Shown in pieces: positions 10,028-64,000 of a stretch of DNA of 64,000 bases. The position numbers were made by a program, and so were the translations under genes. Positions within the stretch are counted from its first letter, which is position 1. Every line of letters begins with the position of its first letter. Origin of the DNA: an uncultured Lysobacterales bacterium (GTDB lineage Bacteria; Pseudomonadota; Gammaproteobacteria; Xanthomonadales; SZUA-36); NCBI GenBank assembly GCA_937924405.1, contig CALDVW010000029.1, positions 5,390-69,389 on the forward strand. The letters run 5' to 3'. The notes under the pieces are model-generated. The model had not been told where the DNA came from and did no database searches. It worked only from the letters and a program-made list of their open reading frames with translations.

Positions 10028-10450
10028 ATGAATCGAAAATACCGCTATTCTGAACTCATGGGAAGCTTAAGCGGACGATTGAAGCGAGAACACGAAACGC
10101 TCGTTTGCATGACGAAAATTTACTGCAATCACCACCATGGTTTGCAGGGTGACGGCCTGTGCGATGATTGTGCCAAATTGATGAGCTACGCTGAAAGGCG
10201 GCTCGATAAGTGCCCATACGGCGAAAAAAAACCAACCTGTGCCAACTGCCCGATTCACTGTTACAAACCGCGGCAGCGCCAGCAGGCGCGTGATGTGATG
10301 CGGTTTGCCGGACCCCGGATGACATGGCGCCATCCACTAAGGTCGCTATGCCATGTGTTGGATAAATTCCGGCGGGTCGAGCACCCCATGAAAATGCGTG
10401 CCGAGTTGCGCCGGCGGCGTGATGCCGCCGGGCAGGGTAAGGGCGCCTAG
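10028..10450 (+). CDS. Cys-rich YgbA-like protein (nitrous-oxide-stimulated promoter family)
   Basis: The pattern ...CMTKIYCNHHHG...CDDCAKL...CPYGEKKPTCANCPIHCYKP... is typical of this small family. The start may be the ATG at 10058. Confidence 0.65.
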   Translation: MNRKYRYSELMGSLSGRLKREHETLVCMTKIYCNHHHGLQGDGLCDDCAKLMSYAERRLDKCPYGEKKPTCANCPIHCYKPRQRQQARDVMRFAGPRMTWRHPLRSLCHVLDKFRRVEHPMKMRAELRRRRDAAGQGKGA

Positions 10451-12249
10451 GGCATCCAGGTAATGGAAACAAACCAGGAGCGGCCGGCGGCGTTAAATCC
10501 GTAAGCCGGTTCATAGGCTTCGTCGGCCAGGTTGTCGCCCCTCAGCTCCAGTCGCCACGCGGGTGTAAATGCCCAGCCTGCGCGCAGATTCAAAAGGTGA
10601 TAACTATCCAGGATGATGCCGCCGAAATCGTTCCGTTTGCCCGAGTAAAACCATTCCAGCCCAATCCAGGAGCCGTTGGAGAAGCGCCGGTCCAGAGAGA
10701 TCGAGCCCTTTTCGTCCGGGCGTCTCAAAAGAGATTCTCCGGTAGCCCGGTCTTCGGTGCTTTGGAACGTCGCATTGGCATTGAGAATCCAGCCACCATG
10801 AGAGTAAGCGTACTCCAGTTCGAGGCCTTCGAGACGGGCTTCGTCGATATTGATCGCCTGGAAAAACTCGCCATTGAATGCGATCAGGTCTTCGACGTCC
10901 GTGCGATAGAGTGCCGCCGAAAACGTTCCTGCGGAGTCATGCTGCCAGCGCAAGCCGACTTCACCCGATGTTGAGGACTCAGGGTCCAGATCCGGGTTGC
11001 CGGCAAAAAGGCCGCCGAAGCCGGGCGAAAACTGTTCGCTGAGATTCGGCCCCCGAAAAGCAGAACCATAGCTTCCCATGACCTGCCAGGCTTCGCCAAT
11101 GTCATAACCCAAGGCAAGCTGGCCGGTGAATTTTTTACCGAAACGGCTGTTATCGTCCAGGCGCCCGGAAATCTGCAGGTGCAGTTGGTTCAGGTAGCGG
11201 TCATAGCTCGCGAAAATCCCGGCATTGTTTCGGCTTTCATTCCATGAGTCGGCCGATTGGCCTGTTTCGCGATAATAATCCAGGCCAAAACTAAGCTTGC
11301 CATCCTGCCCGGTATGCAGCTGATTTTGCCAACTGAATTCGTACCTTTTCGATTTGAACACCGTGCTGAAATATTCAAAATCGGTATCCAGATCATCACT
11401 GATATATCCGCCGAGCAGTTGGTAGTCCCAATCCTGGGAAAAGCTGCCATGAAATCCTGCCGAGGCAATAAACTGCTCTGTATCAGATACGCCCTGGTCG
11501 AATTCCGATTCACTGTCCAGCGCCAGCAGGCTGTACTGCCATTTGCCATAATCCGCCTGAGTGGATCCCTTTACGCCCAGGTTCACATTCCTGAAGCCGT
11601 CGTCGTCAGGGTGGTAACTGAAACCGTTCGGATTCTGGGCGGAAAAACCGTCTACATCACGATATCCGGCATTCACACTGATGCGCGTATTCTCGCCGGC
11701 ATAGCCCAGGCCGCCCTCGAACTCTCCCGTTCCGTAGCTCCCGGCGCTTATCCGGGCGTAAGGTTCGGGACTGCTCCGGGTGAAGACATGAATCACCCCG
11801 CCGATGGAATCTGATCCATACAGGCTGCCACGAGGCCCCCTGACGATTTCTATTCGCTCGACCTGGTTCAAGGGCAATTGTTCCCACACGTAGGCGCCGG
11901 TGTTGGCGGAGCTTACCCTGACGCCATCAATCAGCACCAATACGTGGTTGGAATTGCTGCCGCGCAGAAACACGCTGGTCTGGCTGCCCGGTCCGCCGGA
12001 ACGCACAATGTCCACACCGGGTTGTAAACGCAGCAATTCATACAAGTCTTCCGCGACTGACAGTTCGATATCCTCACGCGTGATCAGGCTGACTGCAGCC
12101 AGCGACTCACTCAACGATTCGACCATCCTCGATGGCGTTACCACCAGGTCCGGTTTGAGTTCGTAAGTATCGATTTCTTCGGCCTGTACCAGGCTGAAGT
12201 GAAGTAAGCCCGTCAATGACAGGATCAGAAAGTTGGTACCGGAGTTCAT
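10447..12249 (-). CDS. btuB: TonB-dependent vitamin B12 receptor
   Basis: Signal peptide, TonB box DLVVTPSR, plug and barrel, preceded by a cobalamin riboswitch. The internal ATG at 12249 was chosen (MNSGTNFLIL...) because it has GGAGGC 6 nt upstream; the track ORF extends into the riboswitch. Confidence 0.85.
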   Translation of the reverse strand: MNSGTNFLILSLTGLLHFSLVQAEEIDTYELKPDLVVTPSRMVESLSESLAAVSLITREDIELSVAEDLYELLRLQPGVDIVRSGGPGSQTSVFLRGSNSNHVLVLIDGVRVSSANTGAYVWEQLPLNQVERIEIVRGPRGSLYGSDSIGGVIHVFTRSSPEPYARISAGSYGTGEFEGGLGYAGENTRISVNAGYRDVDGFSAQNPNGFSYHPDDDGFRNVNLGVKGSTQADYGKWQYSLLALDSESEFDQGVSDTEQFIASAGFHGSFSQDWDYQLLGGYISDDLDTDFEYFSTVFKSKRYEFSWQNQLHTGQDGKLSFGLDYYRETGQSADSWNESRNNAGIFASYDRYLNQLHLQISGRLDDNSRFGKKFTGQLALGYDIGEAWQVMGSYGSAFRGPNLSEQFSPGFGGLFAGNPDLDPESSTSGEVGLRWQHDSAGTFSAALYRTDVEDLIAFNGEFFQAINIDEARLEGLELEYAYSHGGWILNANATFQSTEDRATGESLLRRPDEKGSISLDRRFSNGSWIGLEWFYSGKRNDFGGIILDSYHLLNLRAGWAFTPAWRLELRGDNLADEAYEPAYGFNAAGRSWFVSITWMP

Positions 12250-12349
12250 TTTGCCTCCATAGCGCACACCCGCGTCTGCAATGCGCTGCGGGGGATGGGC
12301 CGGGAGAAATCCACAGACCCAGGTTGCCCTCCGCAACGCGGTTACTGCG

Positions 12350-12545
12350 AACTCTGGGCCGGTCTCCGGACTTGCGAGTGGTCACCATGAGCTAATGGCT
12401 CCTTGCGGCGCCTTCCCACACTTCGTGCAGTGGCTTGAAGCCGCAAACGATCCGCCTGAAGCGGACCGGCTCGCTTACCGTTGCGGGGGCAGTGCCGGAC
12501 TTTAACCGGCTTCCCGTTTCACCCGGCAGACTCGAGGTATGATTC
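12350..12545 (-). promoter_or_regulatory. Cobalamin (adenosylcobalamin) riboswitch in the btuB leader
   Basis: The minus strand reads ...GGGTGAAACGGGAAGCCGGTTAAAGTCCGGCACTGCCCCCGCAACGGTAAG...AAGCCACTGCACGAAGTGTGGGAAGGCG...AAGTCCGGAGACCGGCC. This includes the conserved core and the B12 box (plus-strand 12358-12374). Confidence 0.85.
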
Positions 12546-12579
12546 ACCTGAACCTGTTTTTCCGGGCACCCAAAGCAAT

Positions 12580-58778: not shown

Positions 58779-60191
58779 ATGAGCGACGTGGATTTTGATG
58801 TGGTGGTGCTCGGTGCCGGTCCGGGTGGTTACACGGCGGCGTTCCGTGCAGCTGACCTCGGCCTGCGGGTGGGGTTGGTGGAACGATACCCTGCATTGGG
58901 CGGCGTGTGCCTGAATGTAGGCTGCATCCCGTCCAAGGCCCTTTTGCATACCGCCAATATCATCGAAGAGGCCGCGGCCATGGAGCAGCACGGCGTGAGC
59001 TTCGGTCAACCCGCGGTAGACATTGACAAATTGCGGGGTTTTAAAGAAAGCGTGGTCGGCAAACTCACTGGTGGCCTGGCTGGCATGGCGAAGCAACGAA
59101 AGGTGGAAGTGATTCAGGGTTCGGGTTCCTTTGCAGGGCCGGATGAGCTGGTAGTGAAAACAGAAGGCGGCGAGCGAAAGCTGAGCTTTGCCCATGCGAT
59201 TATCGCGGTGGGTTCCGAGTCCCTTGAACTGGGTCGAATGCCCTGGGGAGATCCCCGGTTGATGGATTCGACCGGCGCATTGGAGTTGGAGGAAATACCG
59301 CAGCGGCTGCTGGTCATTGGAGGCGGCATCATAGGTCTTGAAATGGCCTGCGTCTACCGGGCGCTGGGCAGTGATATTACTCTCTGCGAACTGACGCCCA
59401 CGCTGATGCCAGGAACCGATCCGGACCTGGTCAAACCCTTGCAGCGACGGATCGGGAAACAGTACAAAAACATTCATCTCGAAACGGCTGTCGTCCAGAT
59501 CGATGTAGCTGACGATGCACTGGTTGCGCATTTCGAAGGCAAACACAATGGCAAGGAGAAGTTCGATCGTGTTCTGGTAGCCGTTGGCAGAACACCCAAT
59601 GGTGGAAAGATCAATGCGGCAGCTGCGGGAGTCGAGGTCACGGCCCGGGGATTTATTCCCACGGATAAGCAGATGCGCACCAACGTGCCACATATTTTTG
59701 CGATTGGCGACGTTGTCGGCCAGCCGATGCTGGCGCACAAGGCGACCCACGAAGGCAAGGTTGCAGCCGAGGTATGCGCCGGCGAAAAAAGTGCATTCGA
59801 AGCGCGGGTCATTCCATCTGTCGCCTATACCGACCCTGAGATTGCCTGGGTCGGAGTGACTGAAAGTGAAGCAAAGGAAAGCGGTCAGGAATACGGGGTT
59901 GGCAGGTTTCCGCTAGCGGCAAGTGGGCGGGCGCTGGGCATCGACCGTACCGAGGGTTTTACCAAGTTGTTGTTCGACCAGGCGACGAAACGAATTATCG
60001 GGGCAGGAATCACGGGACCCAACGCGGGCGACCTGATAGCGGAATGCGCCCTGGCGATTGAAATGGGGGCTGAGGCTGAGGATATCGGCTTGACCATTCA
60101 TCCTCATCCGACGCTTTCAGAAAGTGTGGCGATGGCGGCAGAAGTGTTCGAAGGCACGGTGACCGACCTGTATATTCCCCGCAAGAAGTAG
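58779..60191 (+). CDS. lpdA: Dihydrolipoyl dehydrogenase (E3)
   Basis: ...VVVLGAGPGGYTAAFRAA...GGVCLNVGCIPSKALL... is the redox-active disulfide; C-terminal ...HPHPTLSE... Confidence 0.95.
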   Translation: MSDVDFDVVVLGAGPGGYTAAFRAADLGLRVGLVERYPALGGVCLNVGCIPSKALLHTANIIEEAAAMEQHGVSFGQPAVDIDKLRGFKESVVGKLTGGLAGMAKQRKVEVIQGSGSFAGPDELVVKTEGGERKLSFAHAIIAVGSESLELGRMPWGDPRLMDSTGALELEEIPQRLLVIGGGIIGLEMACVYRALGSDITLCELTPTLMPGTDPDLVKPLQRRIGKQYKNIHLETAVVQIDVADDALVAHFEGKHNGKEKFDRVLVAVGRTPNGGKINAAAAGVEVTARGFIPTDKQMRTNVPHIFAIGDVVGQPMLAHKATHEGKVAAEVCAGEKSAFEARVIPSVAYTDPEIAWVGVTESEAKESGQEYGVGRFPLAASGRALGIDRTEGFTKLLFDQATKRIIGAGITGPNAGDLIAECALAIEMGAEAEDIGLTIHPHPTLSESVAMAAEVFEGTVTDLYIPRKK

Positions 60192-60215: not shown

Positions 60216-60992
60216 TCACTCGGGCTGTTCCAGTTTCTTGCGGAACCGGTAAACCACCCGGTCAGTCTGCCCCCGAATACCCTCCGCAAACATTGGCTGA
60301 CTCAGATCGTCATCCGGGTTTCGCAGAACGTTAATCTCACCTTCATATTCGAAACAGCTATCCGAAAAGTCTTTCCTGATTCGTTGCGGGTCTATCCGGT
60401 GCAGATTCTGGGCGGAAGTTTCAGCTTCGCTTCCTGCTGTTGCAACATGGTCTGTCACGCCGAGGACGGCGCCTGGTTTCAGAGCGCTGCATAATTTCCG
60501 CACCACCAGCTTCTCGTCGATATCAGGCCAGCCATTTTCCAGGTCCAGGTAATAGAAGTCATGCCAGGTGAGCATGGCAAGGGCTGCATCGAAAGTATTG
60601 TCAGGAAGCTCCAGCGAGTTGGCCTCGGCGGTCAAATGCTCGACGTTGGCCAACCGGTCACCGGAATACCTTTCAGCGATGCCGTCTTCTGCGTAGGCCA
60701 GGTAGGCCTCGTTGTTGTGCGCCACTACTTTTCCGTTTTCGCCTACGATGCGGCTGACAATTTCGGTGTAGTATCCTGCGCCGGAAAACAGGTCCAGGAC
60801 GGTCATTCCCGGCTCGATTTCAAAAAACTCCAGGACCAGGTCGGGCCGCCTCAGGGCATCAGTCTCTCTGTCTGCCTCCAGCCTGGCGGGAGAAGCAAGC
60901 GAATCGGCAATGGCCGAGTCTGCAATTTCTCCGCCGCCGTTTTCGCAGGGTGCGAGCAGGAGCAGTGCGAATATCGCGTGCGAGCAGTCCAT
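60216..60992 (-). CDS. Class I SAM-dependent methyltransferase with an N-terminal signal/lipobox-like sequence
   Basis: Motif I ...VLDLFSGAGYYTE... The N-terminus ...FALLLLAPC... suggests export or lipidation. Confidence 0.7.
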   Translation of the reverse strand: MDCSHAIFALLLLAPCENGGGEIADSAIADSLASPARLEADRETDALRRPDLVLEFFEIEPGMTVLDLFSGAGYYTEIVSRIVGENGKVVAHNNEAYLAYAEDGIAERYSGDRLANVEHLTAEANSLELPDNTFDAALAMLTWHDFYYLDLENGWPDIDEKLVVRKLCSALKPGAVLGVTDHVATAGSEAETSAQNLHRIDPQRIRKDFSDSCFEYEGEINVLRNPDDDLSQPMFAEGIRGQTDRVVYRFRKKLEQPE

Positions 60993-61103: not shown

Positions 61104-62471
61104 TCACTCGAGAATCAGAAGGCAGACCCCTGTAATTACGACAGCGCCTGCCAGGTTCAAAACGAATCCGGCGCGCGCCATATCTTTTATTCGGACTCTG
61201 CCACTGCCGAAAACAATGGCGTTGGGGGCCGTGGCGACAGGCAGCATGAAGGCGCAACTGGCGCTCAATATGGCAGGTACCATCAATAGCATCGGGTTGA
61301 TATTTCCAACCGTTGCGGTCGCCGCCAGCAATGGCATCAATAGGCTGGAAGTCGCCGTATTGCTTGTGACCTCGGTCAGAAATGTGACCGCGAGGCACAT
61401 GCAGAGAATGAGTAACCAGGTAGGAAGGGCAAGTAATCCGCCGAGTTTCTGCGAGAGGAGGTCTGCCAGCCCGCTGTGAACAAACGCGCTCGCAATGGTA
61501 ATTCCACCGGCAAACAACAGCAGCACCCCCCAGGGTATCTTGCTTGCAGCTTCCCAACGCAACAGCCTGCCCCCTTCACCGTTGGGTAACGCCGCCATCA
61601 ATACAACGGCAATCATGGCGACTGACGCATCGTTGGCGCCCGGTAAATGCAGCAGGCCACTCCAACCACCGAAAGGTGCCTGCCGGGTAATCCAGAAAAA
61701 TGCGGTCAGGCTGAACATGGCCAGCACGCGTTTCTCGAAAGGACTCCAGGCGCCGGCCCGCGGCAATTCAACAGGCGTGGCCAGTTTGACTCCACGGGTC
61801 AACCACATTCCCGCCAGCGGCACCAGCACGACGACAACCGGTATACCCCACATCATCCATTCGGGAAAGCTGGGTGCGTAGCCAAACTGATCCAGATGCA
61901 CTTGCATGAAAATCAGGTTGGGCGGCGTGCCGATGGGCGTGCCAAGGCCGCCGATACTCGCTGCATAGGCGATTCCCAATAGCAGGGGAACCGACATTTT
62001 CCGGTCCGTTTGTTCCAGCACGGCCAGCGCAACCGGCAGCAGCATCAGCGTCGTGGCTGTATTTGAAATCCACATGCTGAGAACGGCGGCAGCGGCCATG
62101 AAACCGAGCACCAGCCCGCGGGCGCTGCCGCCGCCGAACAAGTTGACCATGTACAAGGCAAGTCGGCGATGAGCACCCGAGTCTGACATGGCGGTCGATA
62201 ACATGAATCCACCCATCAGAAGCAGGATCAGGGGGCTACCGAAGGCCTGTCCAACCTGCGCGGGTGTCAATACGCCGAACAGAGGGAAAACAGCGAGAGG
62301 GATCAATGAGGTAAACGGGATGGGAACCGGTTCAAAAATCCACCAGGTGGCGCAAAGCAGGGTGACAGATGCGGTGATGGCAGCCGCTGGTGACCAGCCT
62401 GCCTGACCCGCCAAAAGAATAAAAAGTGCCAGCGACATGAGCGGGCCGATGATGATCAGCCAGCGGGTCAT
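61104..62471 (-). CDS. SLC13/DASS-family anion:sodium symporter
   Basis: 455 aa, polytopic; ...ATWWIFEPVPIPFTSLIPL...; ...SNTATT.ML.P...; ...TEVTSNTATSSLLMP... are DASS hairpin motifs. Confidence 0.85.
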   Translation of the reverse strand: MTRWLIIIGPLMSLALFILLAGQAGWSPAAAITASVTLLCATWWIFEPVPIPFTSLIPLAVFPLFGVLTPAQVGQAFGSPLILLLMGGFMLSTAMSDSGAHRRLALYMVNLFGGGSARGLVLGFMAAAAVLSMWISNTATTLMLLPVALAVLEQTDRKMSVPLLLGIAYAASIGGLGTPIGTPPNLIFMQVHLDQFGYAPSFPEWMMWGIPVVVVLVPLAGMWLTRGVKLATPVELPRAGAWSPFEKRVLAMFSLTAFFWITRQAPFGGWSGLLHLPGANDASVAMIAVVLMAALPNGEGGRLLRWEAASKIPWGVLLLFAGGITIASAFVHSGLADLLSQKLGGLLALPTWLLILCMCLAVTFLTEVTSNTATSSLLMPLLAATATVGNINPMLLMVPAILSASCAFMLPVATAPNAIVFGSGRVRIKDMARAGFVLNLAGAVVITGVCLLILE

Positions 62472-62678
62472 TGATGAAGGTCATTCACAATCAATTTGAG
62501 AAACTCTTACCCGTGCGCAGTTACATTTCGGGGCGTATCATAGCCGATATACCGCATGCGCACGATTCGGCTGATGGCGTGTTCCTCCCCAGTCTCCTGC
62601 AATGGCCCTGGGTGGCAGTTCCAGAGGAGGCAATCAGCCAAAGCCGATTTTTCCGGGATGACCCGGAAGACAGCAGGG

Positions 62679-62707
62679 TTGCAAAAGCGCAAAGAAGTAC
62701 GTAAATT
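62679..62707 (+). promoter_or_regulatory. Sigma70-like promoter candidate (TTGCAA-17 nt-TAAATT) for the argF' leader
   Basis: Hexamers at 62679-62684 and 62702-62707 with a 17-nt spacer. The predicted start at about 62714/62715 coincides with the mini-ORF ATG. Confidence 0.4.
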
Positions 62708-62714
62708 CAGTGGC

Positions 62715-62795
62715 ATGAAGACTTTTACACCAATCGTCGGTTTCAGCCACCTGCGCCGACCCCGGAGCGCAAATCCGGGCTGGGTTGCCGTGTAA
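62715..62795 (+). CDS. Candidate 26-codon leader peptide MKTFTPIVGFSHLRRPRSANPGWVAV, with Arg codons over attenuator segment 1
   Basis: ATG 62715, TAA 62793-62795. Arg codons are CGC CGA (CCC) CGG at 62754-62765. There is no SD, so translation would be leaderless or start at an upstream in-frame ATG (62658 or 62556). Confidence 0.3.
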   Translation: MKTFTPIVGFSHLRRPRSANPGWVAV

Positions 62796-62820
62796 GTCAG
62801 ATTAATCGATTATTTCGAGG

Positions 62821-62847
62821 AAAACCCAGCCACTGGCTGGGTTTTTT
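62821..62847 (+). terminator. Intrinsic terminator in the 5' leader of argF'
   Basis: Stem AAAACCCAGCC/GGCTGGGTTTT (11 bp) with a 3-nt loop and T-run, ending 17 nt before the argF' ATG. No upstream plus-strand gene needs terminating here. Confidence 0.7.
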
Positions 62848-62864
62848 GGTTTGGAGAATAAAAA

Positions 62865-63863
62865 ATGCAACATTTCCTGAGTACCGCGGATTGGACACAG
62901 GAGCAGCTTGATGGCCTGCTCCGGCTCGCGGCTGACCTGAAACAGGACCCTATTCAGGATAGATTACGAGGCAAATCAATCGCCTTGCTGTTCCTGAATC
63001 CATCCATGCGGACCCGGACATCGTTTGACCTTGGCATGCAGCAACTCGGCGGTATCGCGATTGTGTTGCAGCCTGGTAAAGATGCCTGGGGCGTCGAATT
63101 CAAATCCGGAGTGGTGATGGATGCAGATGCAGAGGAACATGTAGCCGAGGTGGCTGGTGTTTTATCCCGCTATTGCGATTTGATCGGAATTCGCGCCTTC
63201 CCGCTCTTTCAGGACTGGGCGGAAGACCGCAATGACCCTGTCATCCGCGCTCTGGCCAAACACGCCAGCGTGCCGATTATCAATATGGAAACCATCGTAC
63301 ACCCCTGCCAGGAACTCGCCCTGATGATGACCCTCAGGGAGAAACTGGGAGAGGTCAGGAACAGGAAATTTGTCCTGACCTGGACGTGGCATCCACGGCC
63401 TCTGAATACAGCGGTGGCTAATTCGGCATTGTTGATCGCCAGTAAGTTCGGTATGGACGTGACTCTGTTGTGCCCTGAGGACGCTTACCGCCTTGATTCC
63501 AGGTTCGAGTCGGCGGCCAGGGATTTTACTGACCAGGCGGGTGGCTCGTTTCAGGTGACTCACGATATTGAAGCTGCATACAGTGACGCAGACGTCGTTT
63601 ATGCAAAGAGTTGGGGTGCACTGCCTTTCTACGGACGGCCCGACGAGGAGTGGGAGTTGCGCAGGAAATACCGTCATTTCATTGTCGACGAAAAAAAGAT
63701 GGCGCTGACCAATAAGGGGATTTTCAGTCACTGCCTGCCTTTGAGGCGTAATGTCAAGGCGACGGATGGCGTGATGGATTCAGACTATTGCGTCGCGATG
63801 GATGAGGCCGAGAACCGCCTGCATGTGCAAAAAGCGGTGATGTTGAATTTGCTCGGCTTGTAA
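62865..63863 (+). CDS. argF': N-acetylornithine carbamoyltransferase (Xanthomonas-type ArgF')
   Basis: ...KSIALLFLNPSMRTRTSF...VLQPGKDAW..EF..G.VMD...EEH.AEV...; ...INMETI.HPCQELA...; ...FSHCLPLRRNVKATD.VMDS...DEAENRLHVQKA.M... tracks the X. campestris AOTCase sequence closely, as I recall it. Confidence 0.88.
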   Translation: MQHFLSTADWTQEQLDGLLRLAADLKQDPIQDRLRGKSIALLFLNPSMRTRTSFDLGMQQLGGIAIVLQPGKDAWGVEFKSGVVMDADAEEHVAEVAGVLSRYCDLIGIRAFPLFQDWAEDRNDPVIRALAKHASVPIINMETIVHPCQELALMMTLREKLGEVRNRKFVLTWTWHPRPLNTAVANSALLIASKFGMDVTLLCPEDAYRLDSRFESAARDFTDQAGGSFQVTHDIEAAYSDADVVYAKSWGALPFYGRPDEEWELRRKYRHFIVDEKKMALTNKGIFSHCLPLRRNVKATDGVMDSDYCVAMDEAENRLHVQKAVMLNLLGL

Positions 63864-63909: not shown

Positions 63910-64000
63910 ATGACGGACAAAATTGTATTGGCTTTTTCAGGCGGGTTGGACACCAGCTATTGCGTACTCGATCTGGTGCAAAAGGGTTACGAAGTTCATA
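63910..64000 (+). CDS. argG: Argininosuccinate synthase, N-terminal fragment; continues past the window
   Basis: MTDKIVLAFSGGLDTSYCVLDLVQKGYEVH carries the ATP-binding AFSGGLDTS motif. Confidence 0.9.
   Translation, partial: MTDKIVLAFSGGLDTSYCVLDLVQKGYEVH

Follow-up and report, generated by a model that had tools for sequence, protein, structure and literature searches.

The 64,000-nucleotide window analysed here, from an uncultured Lysobacterales bacterium, ends in a pair of arginine-synthesis genes: argF', encoding N-acetylornithine carbamoyltransferase, is followed by argG, encoding argininosuccinate synthase. In front of argF' lies a leader that contains a promoter, a short open reading frame (ORF) with arginine codons and an intrinsic terminator whose end is 17 nucleotides (nt) before the argF' ATG at 62865. 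The initial annotation had read this arrangement as an arginine-codon attenuator, and all of the coordinates that it gave for the promoter, the ORF, the arginine codons, the pairing segments and the terminator are present in the sequence. To judge from that sequence and from those of its relatives, the leader is very probably a real, functional arginine attenuator of the trpL/hisL kind. Two alignments are referred to throughout: A1 holds 40 leaders, taken from the arginine run to the T-run, and A2 holds 15 close relatives. The features of the locus are as follows.

62679-62684, plus strand: -35 hexamer, TTGCAA; TTGCA is invariant in 15 close relatives
62702-62707, plus strand: -10 hexamer, TAAATT, ending 7 nt before the leader ATG; T-A-n-A-T-T is invariant in 15 close relatives
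62715-62795, plus strand: leader-peptide ORF of 26 codons plus TAA, with the translation MKTFTPIVGFSHLRRPRSANPGWVAV and then the stop
62736-62760, plus strand: optional upstream hairpin P0 (GUCGGU...GCCGAC), -9.1 kcal/mol, tentatively predicted by folding
62753-62766, plus strand: segment 1, the Arg codons plus CCCGGA (62761-62766), predicted 5' arm of the 1:2 helix (anti-antiterminator) in the RNAalifold consensus of A2
62754-62759, plus strand: conserved, putatively regulatory Arg codons CGC CGA, within the block GCGCCGA that is invariant in 15 relatives
62763-62765, plus strand: third Arg codon, CGG, lineage-specific; TGG in most close relatives (A2 and peptides)
62774-62788, plus strand: segment 2, 5' arm of the antiterminator, with TCCGGGCTGGGTT at 62774-62786
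62793-62795, plus strand: leader stop codon TAA, starting 7 nt after the end of segment 2
62819-62831, plus strand: segment 3, 5' arm of the terminator, of which 62823-62831 (AACCCAGCC) also pairs with segment 2
62835-62847, plus strand: segment 4, 3' arm of the terminator, GGCTGGG, with the T-run at 62842-62847 (GGCTGGGTT plus the T-run)
62853-62856, plus strand: Shine-Dalgarno (SD) sequence GGAG of argF', outside the hairpin, read from the sequence
62865-63863, plus strand: argF', the first gene of the putatively regulated operon (NF003384, 1.6e-163, 543.6 bits against a cut-off of 288)
63910-64000, plus strand: 5' end of argG, cut at the window edge (MTDKIVLAFSGGLDTSYC..., read from the sequence)
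61104-62471, minus strand: DASS transporter gene, upstream neighbour of the leader, identified by family search

Conservation of the leader in relatives and metagenomes

The significance of the leader comes from its relatives, the window by itself being suggestive and only marginal. A scan with the argF' protein, taking one genome per species, gave 74 loci, mostly from the Wenzhouxiangellaceae and from metagenome-assembled genomes labelled 'Lysobacterales', with others from Elongatibacter, Marinicella, the Woeseiaceae and further groups. Of the 75 sequences that these make with the window, 47 have the terminator core CCCRGC...GYYGGGTTTT ahead of argF'. Two loci from alphaproteobacteria (L065 and L073) have the terminator without a leader and were left out as ordinary terminators; 45 loci were usable. 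A short ATG-initiated ORF with at least three Arg in five codons is present in 39 of the 45, against 2.9 expected from dinucleotide shuffles, and at least four Arg are found in 16 of the 45, against 0.24 expected from the same shuffles. The Arg-run ORFs of the genome loci end 20-43 nt before the terminator core. Equivalents of the window's ORF in relatives have 15-40 codons and Arg runs such as FRRFRRPR, RRIRRR, RLRRR, RQRRR, RRSPRRRR, RRRR and RRRRR. Across the genome loci and the metagenome there are 108 distinct leader peptides that fall into 34 clusters at 50% identity, and the only features common to the clusters are the Arg run and the GWV tail that is encoded by segment 2. The mini-ORF and its arginine codons have therefore been conserved while the remainder of the peptide has diverged, and in the alignment of argF' upstream regions they are accompanied by compensatory changes in segments 2 to 4; the initial annotation had proposed such an alignment as a check, for segments 1 to 4.

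The association with arginine synthesis reappears when neither the codons nor the gene is specified. We scanned metagenome contigs with a pattern made up of segments 2, 3 and 4 only (GGCTGGGT...ACCCAGCC...GGCTGGGTTTT) and obtained 102 matches; an argF' homologue begins within ~140 nt downstream in 89 of them, and in 87 the ORF over segment 2 has an Arg run, again of at least three Arg in five codons. Seven matches were rejected as leaders, those examined being tandem terminators after 5S rRNA. A 5S rRNA gene is followed by a tandem pair of terminators of the same stem sequence (ACCCAGC...GCTGGGTTTTT) at L092:130-215 and also in L091, L142 and L148; terminators of this form are common in these bacteria. 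The leader is found in front of other genes of the pathway too: covariance model R1 detected a copy before argG in L074 (L074:4780-4960), and at L164:2987-3150, in the metagenome, a leader whose peptide ends in LRLRRRRPAPSPGWVMR and a stop is followed by a terminator and a gene for a Xanthomonas-type acetylglutamate kinase (NF003387; argB). It appears from these sequences that the leader is tied to arginine synthesis generally, in the shape of argF', argG and argB, and not to argF' itself.

In the window the Arg stretch reads CGC CGA CCC CGG (62754-62765), and the Arg found further upstream in relatives is Ser (AGC) here. Three Arg codons had been counted in the initial annotation; CGC-CGA is conserved and so stands, while the CGG at 62763, replaced as it is by TGG in most close relatives, does not. 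Codon choice within the Arg runs is far from that of the long ORFs of the window. CGC, CGA and CGT make up 96% of the Arg-run codons, against 54% in the long ORFs of the window, and CGA alone accounts for 36% against 10%, a 3.6-fold enrichment, with CGG at 4% and no AGR codons at all. CGC, CGA and CGU are all read by a single inosine-containing tRNA, tRNA-Arg(ICG), and CGA is its weakest codon. The preference for CGA and CGC suggests that the response of the leader may be tuned via one tRNA isoacceptor.

The promoter has been kept together with the ORF. When the intergenic region was compared with relatives by BLAST, conservation was seen to begin at 62677, at the promoter, and to extend to argF'. 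A longer ORF that would contain the mini-ORF (62556-62795, 79 amino acids) has no family match, and its upstream ATGs were rejected because conservation with relatives starts only at 62677. The spacer between TTGCAA and TAAATT is 17 nt, and the ATG stands 7 nt after the -10 box in the 15 close relatives. In a wider set of 38 leaders, a TTGnnn-17-(T/C)AnnnT promoter has a gap of 6-7 nt between the -10 box and the ATG in 29, and a TTGnnn hexamer lies 17 nt upstream of the -10 box in most; five leaders were scored with a gap of 9 nt, but three of them (L015, L016 and L051) read ATGATG at this point, and measured to the first of the two ATGs the gap is 6. An SD-like motif precedes the leader ATG in one of the 38. 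Given a -10 box 6-7 nt before the ATG and no SD, the leader ORF would be leaderless: on promoter geometry the window transcript is predicted to have its start at the ATG (62715) or immediately beside it, and we infer that the leader peptide is translated from a leaderless mRNA. The initial annotation had placed the transcript start at this ATG and remarked on the missing SD, and the conservation of the promoter agrees with both.

A generic promoter and terminator scan reported nothing in 62300-63000. This is a threshold effect and not evidence of absence, since the promoter has only 8 of 12 matches, which is below the cut-off, and the T-run of the terminator was counted as stem; the hairpin was missed on either strand. 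No E. coli-type ARG box (WNTGAATWWWWATTCANW, at most 3 mismatches) is present in 62472-62864, where a divergent operator motif may differ from the one sought; elsewhere in the window there are 3 matches, against 3.85 expected by chance. ARG boxes usually occur in tandem and overlap the promoter.

The upstream neighbour of the leader, the DASS transporter gene, is on the minus strand, and thus, as the initial annotation had noted, there is no plus-strand gene to account for the terminator in front of argF'. In the window two minus-strand genes, one methyltransferase-like (60216-60992) and the other that of the DASS transporter (61104-62471), separate lpdA (58779-60191) from the leader. The end of lpdA is directly upstream of the leader in relatives, for example L001 and L007, and in L007 the order is lpdA and then leader-argF'-argG-argE. 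The minus-strand gene pair looks like an insertion that spared the leader promoter. Downstream of the hairpin, TGGAG at the argF' SD is kept in the ten closest relatives. Far from this locus, a cobalamin riboswitch (RF00174, 90 bits) lies at 12351-12576 of the window on the minus strand, directly upstream of a minus-strand ORF of 629 amino acids at 10447-12336.

Alternative folds and the position of the ribosome

The terminator (62819-62831 with 62835-62847) has a stem of 11 bp, or of 13 bp when two G-U pairs are included, with the loop ACU, a run of six U and a folding energy of -18.5 kcal/mol. Over 62819-62847 the 5' A-tract of the hairpin pairs with the T-run, which gives it the shape of a bidirectional terminator, with only four T after the stem on the minus strand. 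Segment 2 repeats the terminator 3' arm exactly in its core (GGCTGGGTT / GGCUGGGUU, 62778-62786). The window leader folds below its shuffles (z = -4.05), and both of its competing hairpins are conserved: among the 40 leaders of A1 the terminator is 89% paired, with compensatory change at 3 pairs, and the antiterminator formed by segments 2 and 3 (62778-62786 with 62823-62831) is 85% paired, with compensatory change at 4. Both pairings collapse when the register is slid by 1-3 columns. Segments 2, 3 and 4 covary three ways. At one position 35 leaders have C-G-C and 3 have T-A-T; at the next, 23 have T-A-T and 6 have C-G-C, with G-U intermediates. Outside the pairing segments, mean column identity is 46%. 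The proposal that segment 2 is an antiterminator copy of the terminator 3' arm is borne out by its covariation with segments 3 and 4.

The 1:2 helix, proposed initially as 6 bp, can be extended. RNAalifold on A2 pairs GCGCCGACCCCGGA (62753-62766, including the Arg codons) with UCCGGGCUGGGUUGC (62774-62788) at -16.9 kcal/mol, compared with -9.9 kcal/mol for the short form, and the extended helix would hide all of segment 2. The 3' arm of the optional hairpin P0 consists of the Arg codons, and hence P0 competes with the extended helix; its outer G-C pair is replaced by A-U in L002, L003 and L005 and mismatched in L004 and L020. At the gathering score, a search of the whole window against Rfam, which includes the Trp, His, Leu, Thr and Phe leader families, gave no match in the leader region, and at permissive E-values over 62300-63000 the best hit was rnk_pseudo, which covers the terminator hairpin only and, at 19.3 bits, falls short of its gathering score of 55.

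Geometry was counted in the 29 of 36 leaders in which an automatic call found a GGCTGGG-type segment 2. In these the last Arg codon is 8-27 nt (mostly 14-18) before segment 2, and 2-12 nt separate the end of segment 2 from the end of the stop codon; in the other seven this last distance is 14-147 nt. The ribosome extends ~14 nt from its P site to its 3' edge (PMC7856553). With this reach, and the spacing observed, a ribosome at an Arg codon would leave segment 2 just free, and one terminating at the TAA, 7 nt past segment 2, would cover it. We modelled the two positions in silico by folding each nascent leader to the end of segment 3 with the ribosome-covered nucleotides masked. When the ribosome was placed on the Arg codons, 38 of 39 leaders formed the antiterminator; when it was placed on the stop codon, 4 of 39 did, and in 35 of the 39 the antiterminator was abolished. 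The constant spacing and this dependence on ribosome position uphold the trpL/hisL-like geometry that had been proposed for the window. The initial annotation had also called for the energies of the alternative states to be compared. Besides the values for the 1:2 helix given above, the antiterminator of the window in the stalled state reaches -21.6 kcal/mol once segment 3 has been made, against the -18.5 kcal/mol of the terminator; the full-length RNA at equilibrium favours the terminator. In these models, a preference for the antiterminator in the stalled state and for the terminator in the full-length RNA would be the usual kinetic arrangement.

The proposed mechanism and its rivals

We consider it likely, from the sequences, that transcription of argF'-argG(-argE) is attenuated at this leader by the ribosome that translates the leader peptide, with charged tRNA-Arg as the signal that is sensed. 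Transcription from TTGCAA-17-TAAATT would begin on or beside the leader ATG (62715), and the 26-codon ORF would be translated leaderless. When arginine is plentiful the ribosome would pass CGC-CGA and reach the TAA at 62793, where its footprint would lie over segment 2 (62778-62786). With segment 2 covered, segment 3 would pair with segment 4 to form the 13-bp hairpin and its U-run, and RNA polymerase would stop at about 62847, 17 nt short of argF'. When Arg-tRNA is scarce, the ribosome would stall with CGC or CGA in its A site and its leading edge some 9-12 nt further on, a position in which it would hold segment 1 open and expose segment 2. The exposed segment 2 would pair with segment 3 upon its transcription, blocking the terminator, and the operon would be read through.

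We also lean, by a modest degree, towards a wider proposition. It holds that this may be the first arginine-specific leader-peptide attenuator, a leaderless mini-ORF whose CGC, CGA and CGU codons would report the charging of tRNA-Arg(ICG), and that it may serve in place of ArgR as the main transcriptional control of argF', argG and argB operons across marine and saline gammaproteobacteria related to the Xanthomonadales (Wenzhouxiangellaceae, Woeseiaceae, Marinicella, Elongatibacter and many uncultured lineages). On this proposition the operon would be on when there is no ribosome on segment 2, unlike trp.

Several observations weigh against the interpretation as an attenuator. The window leader is a minimal version, with only two conserved Arg codons and one non-conserved CGG, and a comparable Arg-rich ATG-initiated ORF just before the terminator arises in 7% of dinucleotide shuffles of the window (p ~0.07). 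With no ribosome, 27 of 39 leaders, the window's among them, fold into the antiterminator at equilibrium. Since the untranslated RNA forms the antiterminator, termination seems to need a ribosome on segment 2, and basal termination would hang entirely on ribosome timing; in this respect the leader would depart from trp, whose leader RNA terminates when it is untranslated. A C-A mismatch interrupts the antiterminator of five leaders. The 1:2 helix is 97% paired in the 15 relatives, with one compensatory pair only (CCCGGA/UCCGGG versus CCCAAAU/AUUUGGG), and when the upstream 45 nt are shuffled segment 2 is paired as often (77% vs 75%), with the same minimum free energy. As shuffles pair segment 2 equally, we claim no significance for this helix. 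It can be extended beyond the 6 bp first described, and it is plausible, not established. The stem sequence ACCCAGCC/GGCTGGGT also occurs in ordinary terminators after 5S rRNA in this group, and for that reason conservation of the stem alone proves little and does not mark an arg leader.

Individual loci depart from the pattern as well. At L005:2849, in a leader of the closest clade, a GTG takes the place of the leaderless ATG of the other leaders, with the remaining ORF (VKTSTPTIGFRHLRRSWMENPGWVAV) intact, and leaderless mRNA normally needs AUG. In L074 the Arg run (RRPRRR) is shifted to the +1 frame with respect to the ATG beside the -10 box; this is a nanopore assembly in which argG is also frame-broken, and an indel error is likely. 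In L043 the Arg run (DRRRRV) is out of frame with the ATG. Two loci (L063:2900-2975 and L034:310-410) have a promoter and a ACCCAGCC-type terminator before argF' with no recognisable Arg-run ORF between them, the terminator of L063 following almost directly after the -10 box; these are possibly decayed leaders. Finally, the leader is missing from about a third of the argF' loci, many of them from Wenzhouxiangella.

Other explanations fit poorly because the ATG, the Arg run, the distance to the stop codon and the pairing segments are all that is conserved, and always beside arginine-synthesis genes. The unit might be an independent small gene, for a small protein or a small RNA, that has its own terminator and from which argF' is reached by constitutive leak-through, the Arg codons sensing nothing. 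We regard this as quite unlikely. In its favour, the unit has its own promoter, ORF and strong terminator, terminated leaders can act secondarily in trans, and a gap of only 17 nt between terminator and argF' makes argF' dependent on read-through in any event. Yet nothing of the peptide is conserved, as the 34 clusters attest, beyond the Arg run and the residues that segment 2 encodes; arginine-synthesis genes adjoin 89 of the 102 pattern matches, and the unit is found before argG and argB also; and covariation of segment 2 with the terminator arms would be purposeless in a free-standing gene.

It is very unlikely that the leader, while an attenuator, senses arginine through an RNA-binding protein or through the RNA itself in the manner of a riboswitch, with the ORF incidental. 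No Rfam family matches the leader region, the RNA is poorly conserved outside its pairing segments (the mean column identity of 46% given above), and across 34 clusters the ORF has kept its in-frame ATG, its Arg run and the constant spacing of its stop codon from segment 2. A bias towards the codons of one tRNA, moreover, makes sense only if those codons are decoded. These facts have to be set against two others: a protein or ligand that stabilised one fold would operate a terminator and antiterminator pair just as well, and the conserved block GCGCCGA...GGCUGGGU might be where it binds.

Arg-rich and Arg-Pro nascent chains, of which the RRPR of the window is an example, can slow ribosomes, and this raises the idea that free arginine causes the nascent leader peptide to arrest its ribosome, as it does with the fungal arginine attenuator peptide, Arg-tRNA playing no part as the signal. 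We hold this to be highly improbable, given that arrest peptides need a conserved sequence and everything but the Arg run varies here. The logic would also be inverted: with arginine abundant, the stalled ribosome would leave segment 2 exposed and a biosynthetic operon would be turned on.

Chance, in the sense of an ordinary terminator (a relic of that of lpdA, for example) preceded by a GC-rich ORF, is extremely improbable, for although such an ORF appears in 7% of window shuffles, lpdA ends just upstream in L001 and L007, and rRNA-operon terminators use the same stem sequence, 39 loci have the ORF where 2.9 are expected, the conserved promoter sits between lpdA and the ORF, the geometry is fixed, the segments covary, and the upstream genes of the window are on the other strand.

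Comparison with known systems

If the attenuator operates as proposed, it would extend ribosome-mediated attenuation to arginine, it would explain how argF'-type pathways are regulated in a large and mostly uncultured branch of the gammaproteobacteria, and it would add a proteobacterial case of a leaderless leader peptide. The mini-ORFs of arg leaders are unannotated, and covariance model R1 offers a means of annotating them. Since the leader is present in a cultured strain, Elongatibacter sediminis CH-27 (L009, leader at L009:2826-2962), the prediction is directly testable there.

The novelty of the system lies in the arginine and in the leaderless start; its design is that of trpL and hisL, with no homologue in Rfam. 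It shares with the classical attenuators (trpL, hisL, leuL, thrL, pheL, ilvL/ivbL) a short 5'-leader ORF containing codons for the end product, an intrinsic terminator immediately ahead of the first biosynthetic gene and an antiterminator that uses the 5' arm of that terminator; the position of the ribosome would select the fold. Its few regulatory codons have a counterpart in the two Trp codons of trpL. The arg leader is unlike the classical systems in its amino acid, in having no sequence homology to them, in an ORF that is apparently leaderless (with its start at +1 and no SD), and in that its untranslated form is predicted to read through and not to terminate.

Among amino-acid pathways, arginine synthesis is the textbook example of control by a repressor, ArgR, rather than attenuation. 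The classical comparison of proteobacterial attenuators, by Vitreschak et al. in 2004, reportedly deals with those for His, Thr, Trp, Phe and the branched-chain amino acids but with none for Arg. The initial annotation was aware of no arginine leader-peptide attenuator, and we found none in Rfam 15, in a survey of attenuators (PMC2965389), in a survey of regulons (PMC5343134) or in the full-text literature searched, which excluded subscription-only papers. Repression by ArgR at ARG boxes is the usual form of arginine control in the Enterobacteria, the Vibrionales and other gammaproteobacteria (PMC5343134). ArgR performs the same task as the one proposed here, that of turning arg genes off when arginine is plentiful; it is a DNA-binding repressor that senses free arginine, whereas the arg leader would sense charged tRNA and has no ARG box near its promoter.

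The nearest systems in concept appear, by analogy, to be found in a different phylum and in a different pathway. In mycobacteria, leaderless polycysteine short ORFs attenuate the genes downstream of them (Canestrari et al. 2020, PMC8764745, as described in PMC13236596 and PMC7856553). According to the descriptions in those citing papers, they resemble the arg leader in being leaderless, in standing at the 5' end of an amino-acid-related operon and in having consecutive cognate codons, and differ from it in phylum and in amino acid. In Salmonella, Arg codons in orf34, upstream of speF, report arginine via the ribosome, and alternative folds of the mRNA control speF (PMC6386406). As far as the abstract of that work describes it, orf34 shares with the arg leader an upstream ORF with Arg codons, a ribosome that acts as the reporter of arginine and alternative mRNA conformations; the gene controlled there belongs to polyamine metabolism (ornithine decarboxylase), whereas here the genes are those of arginine synthesis itself.

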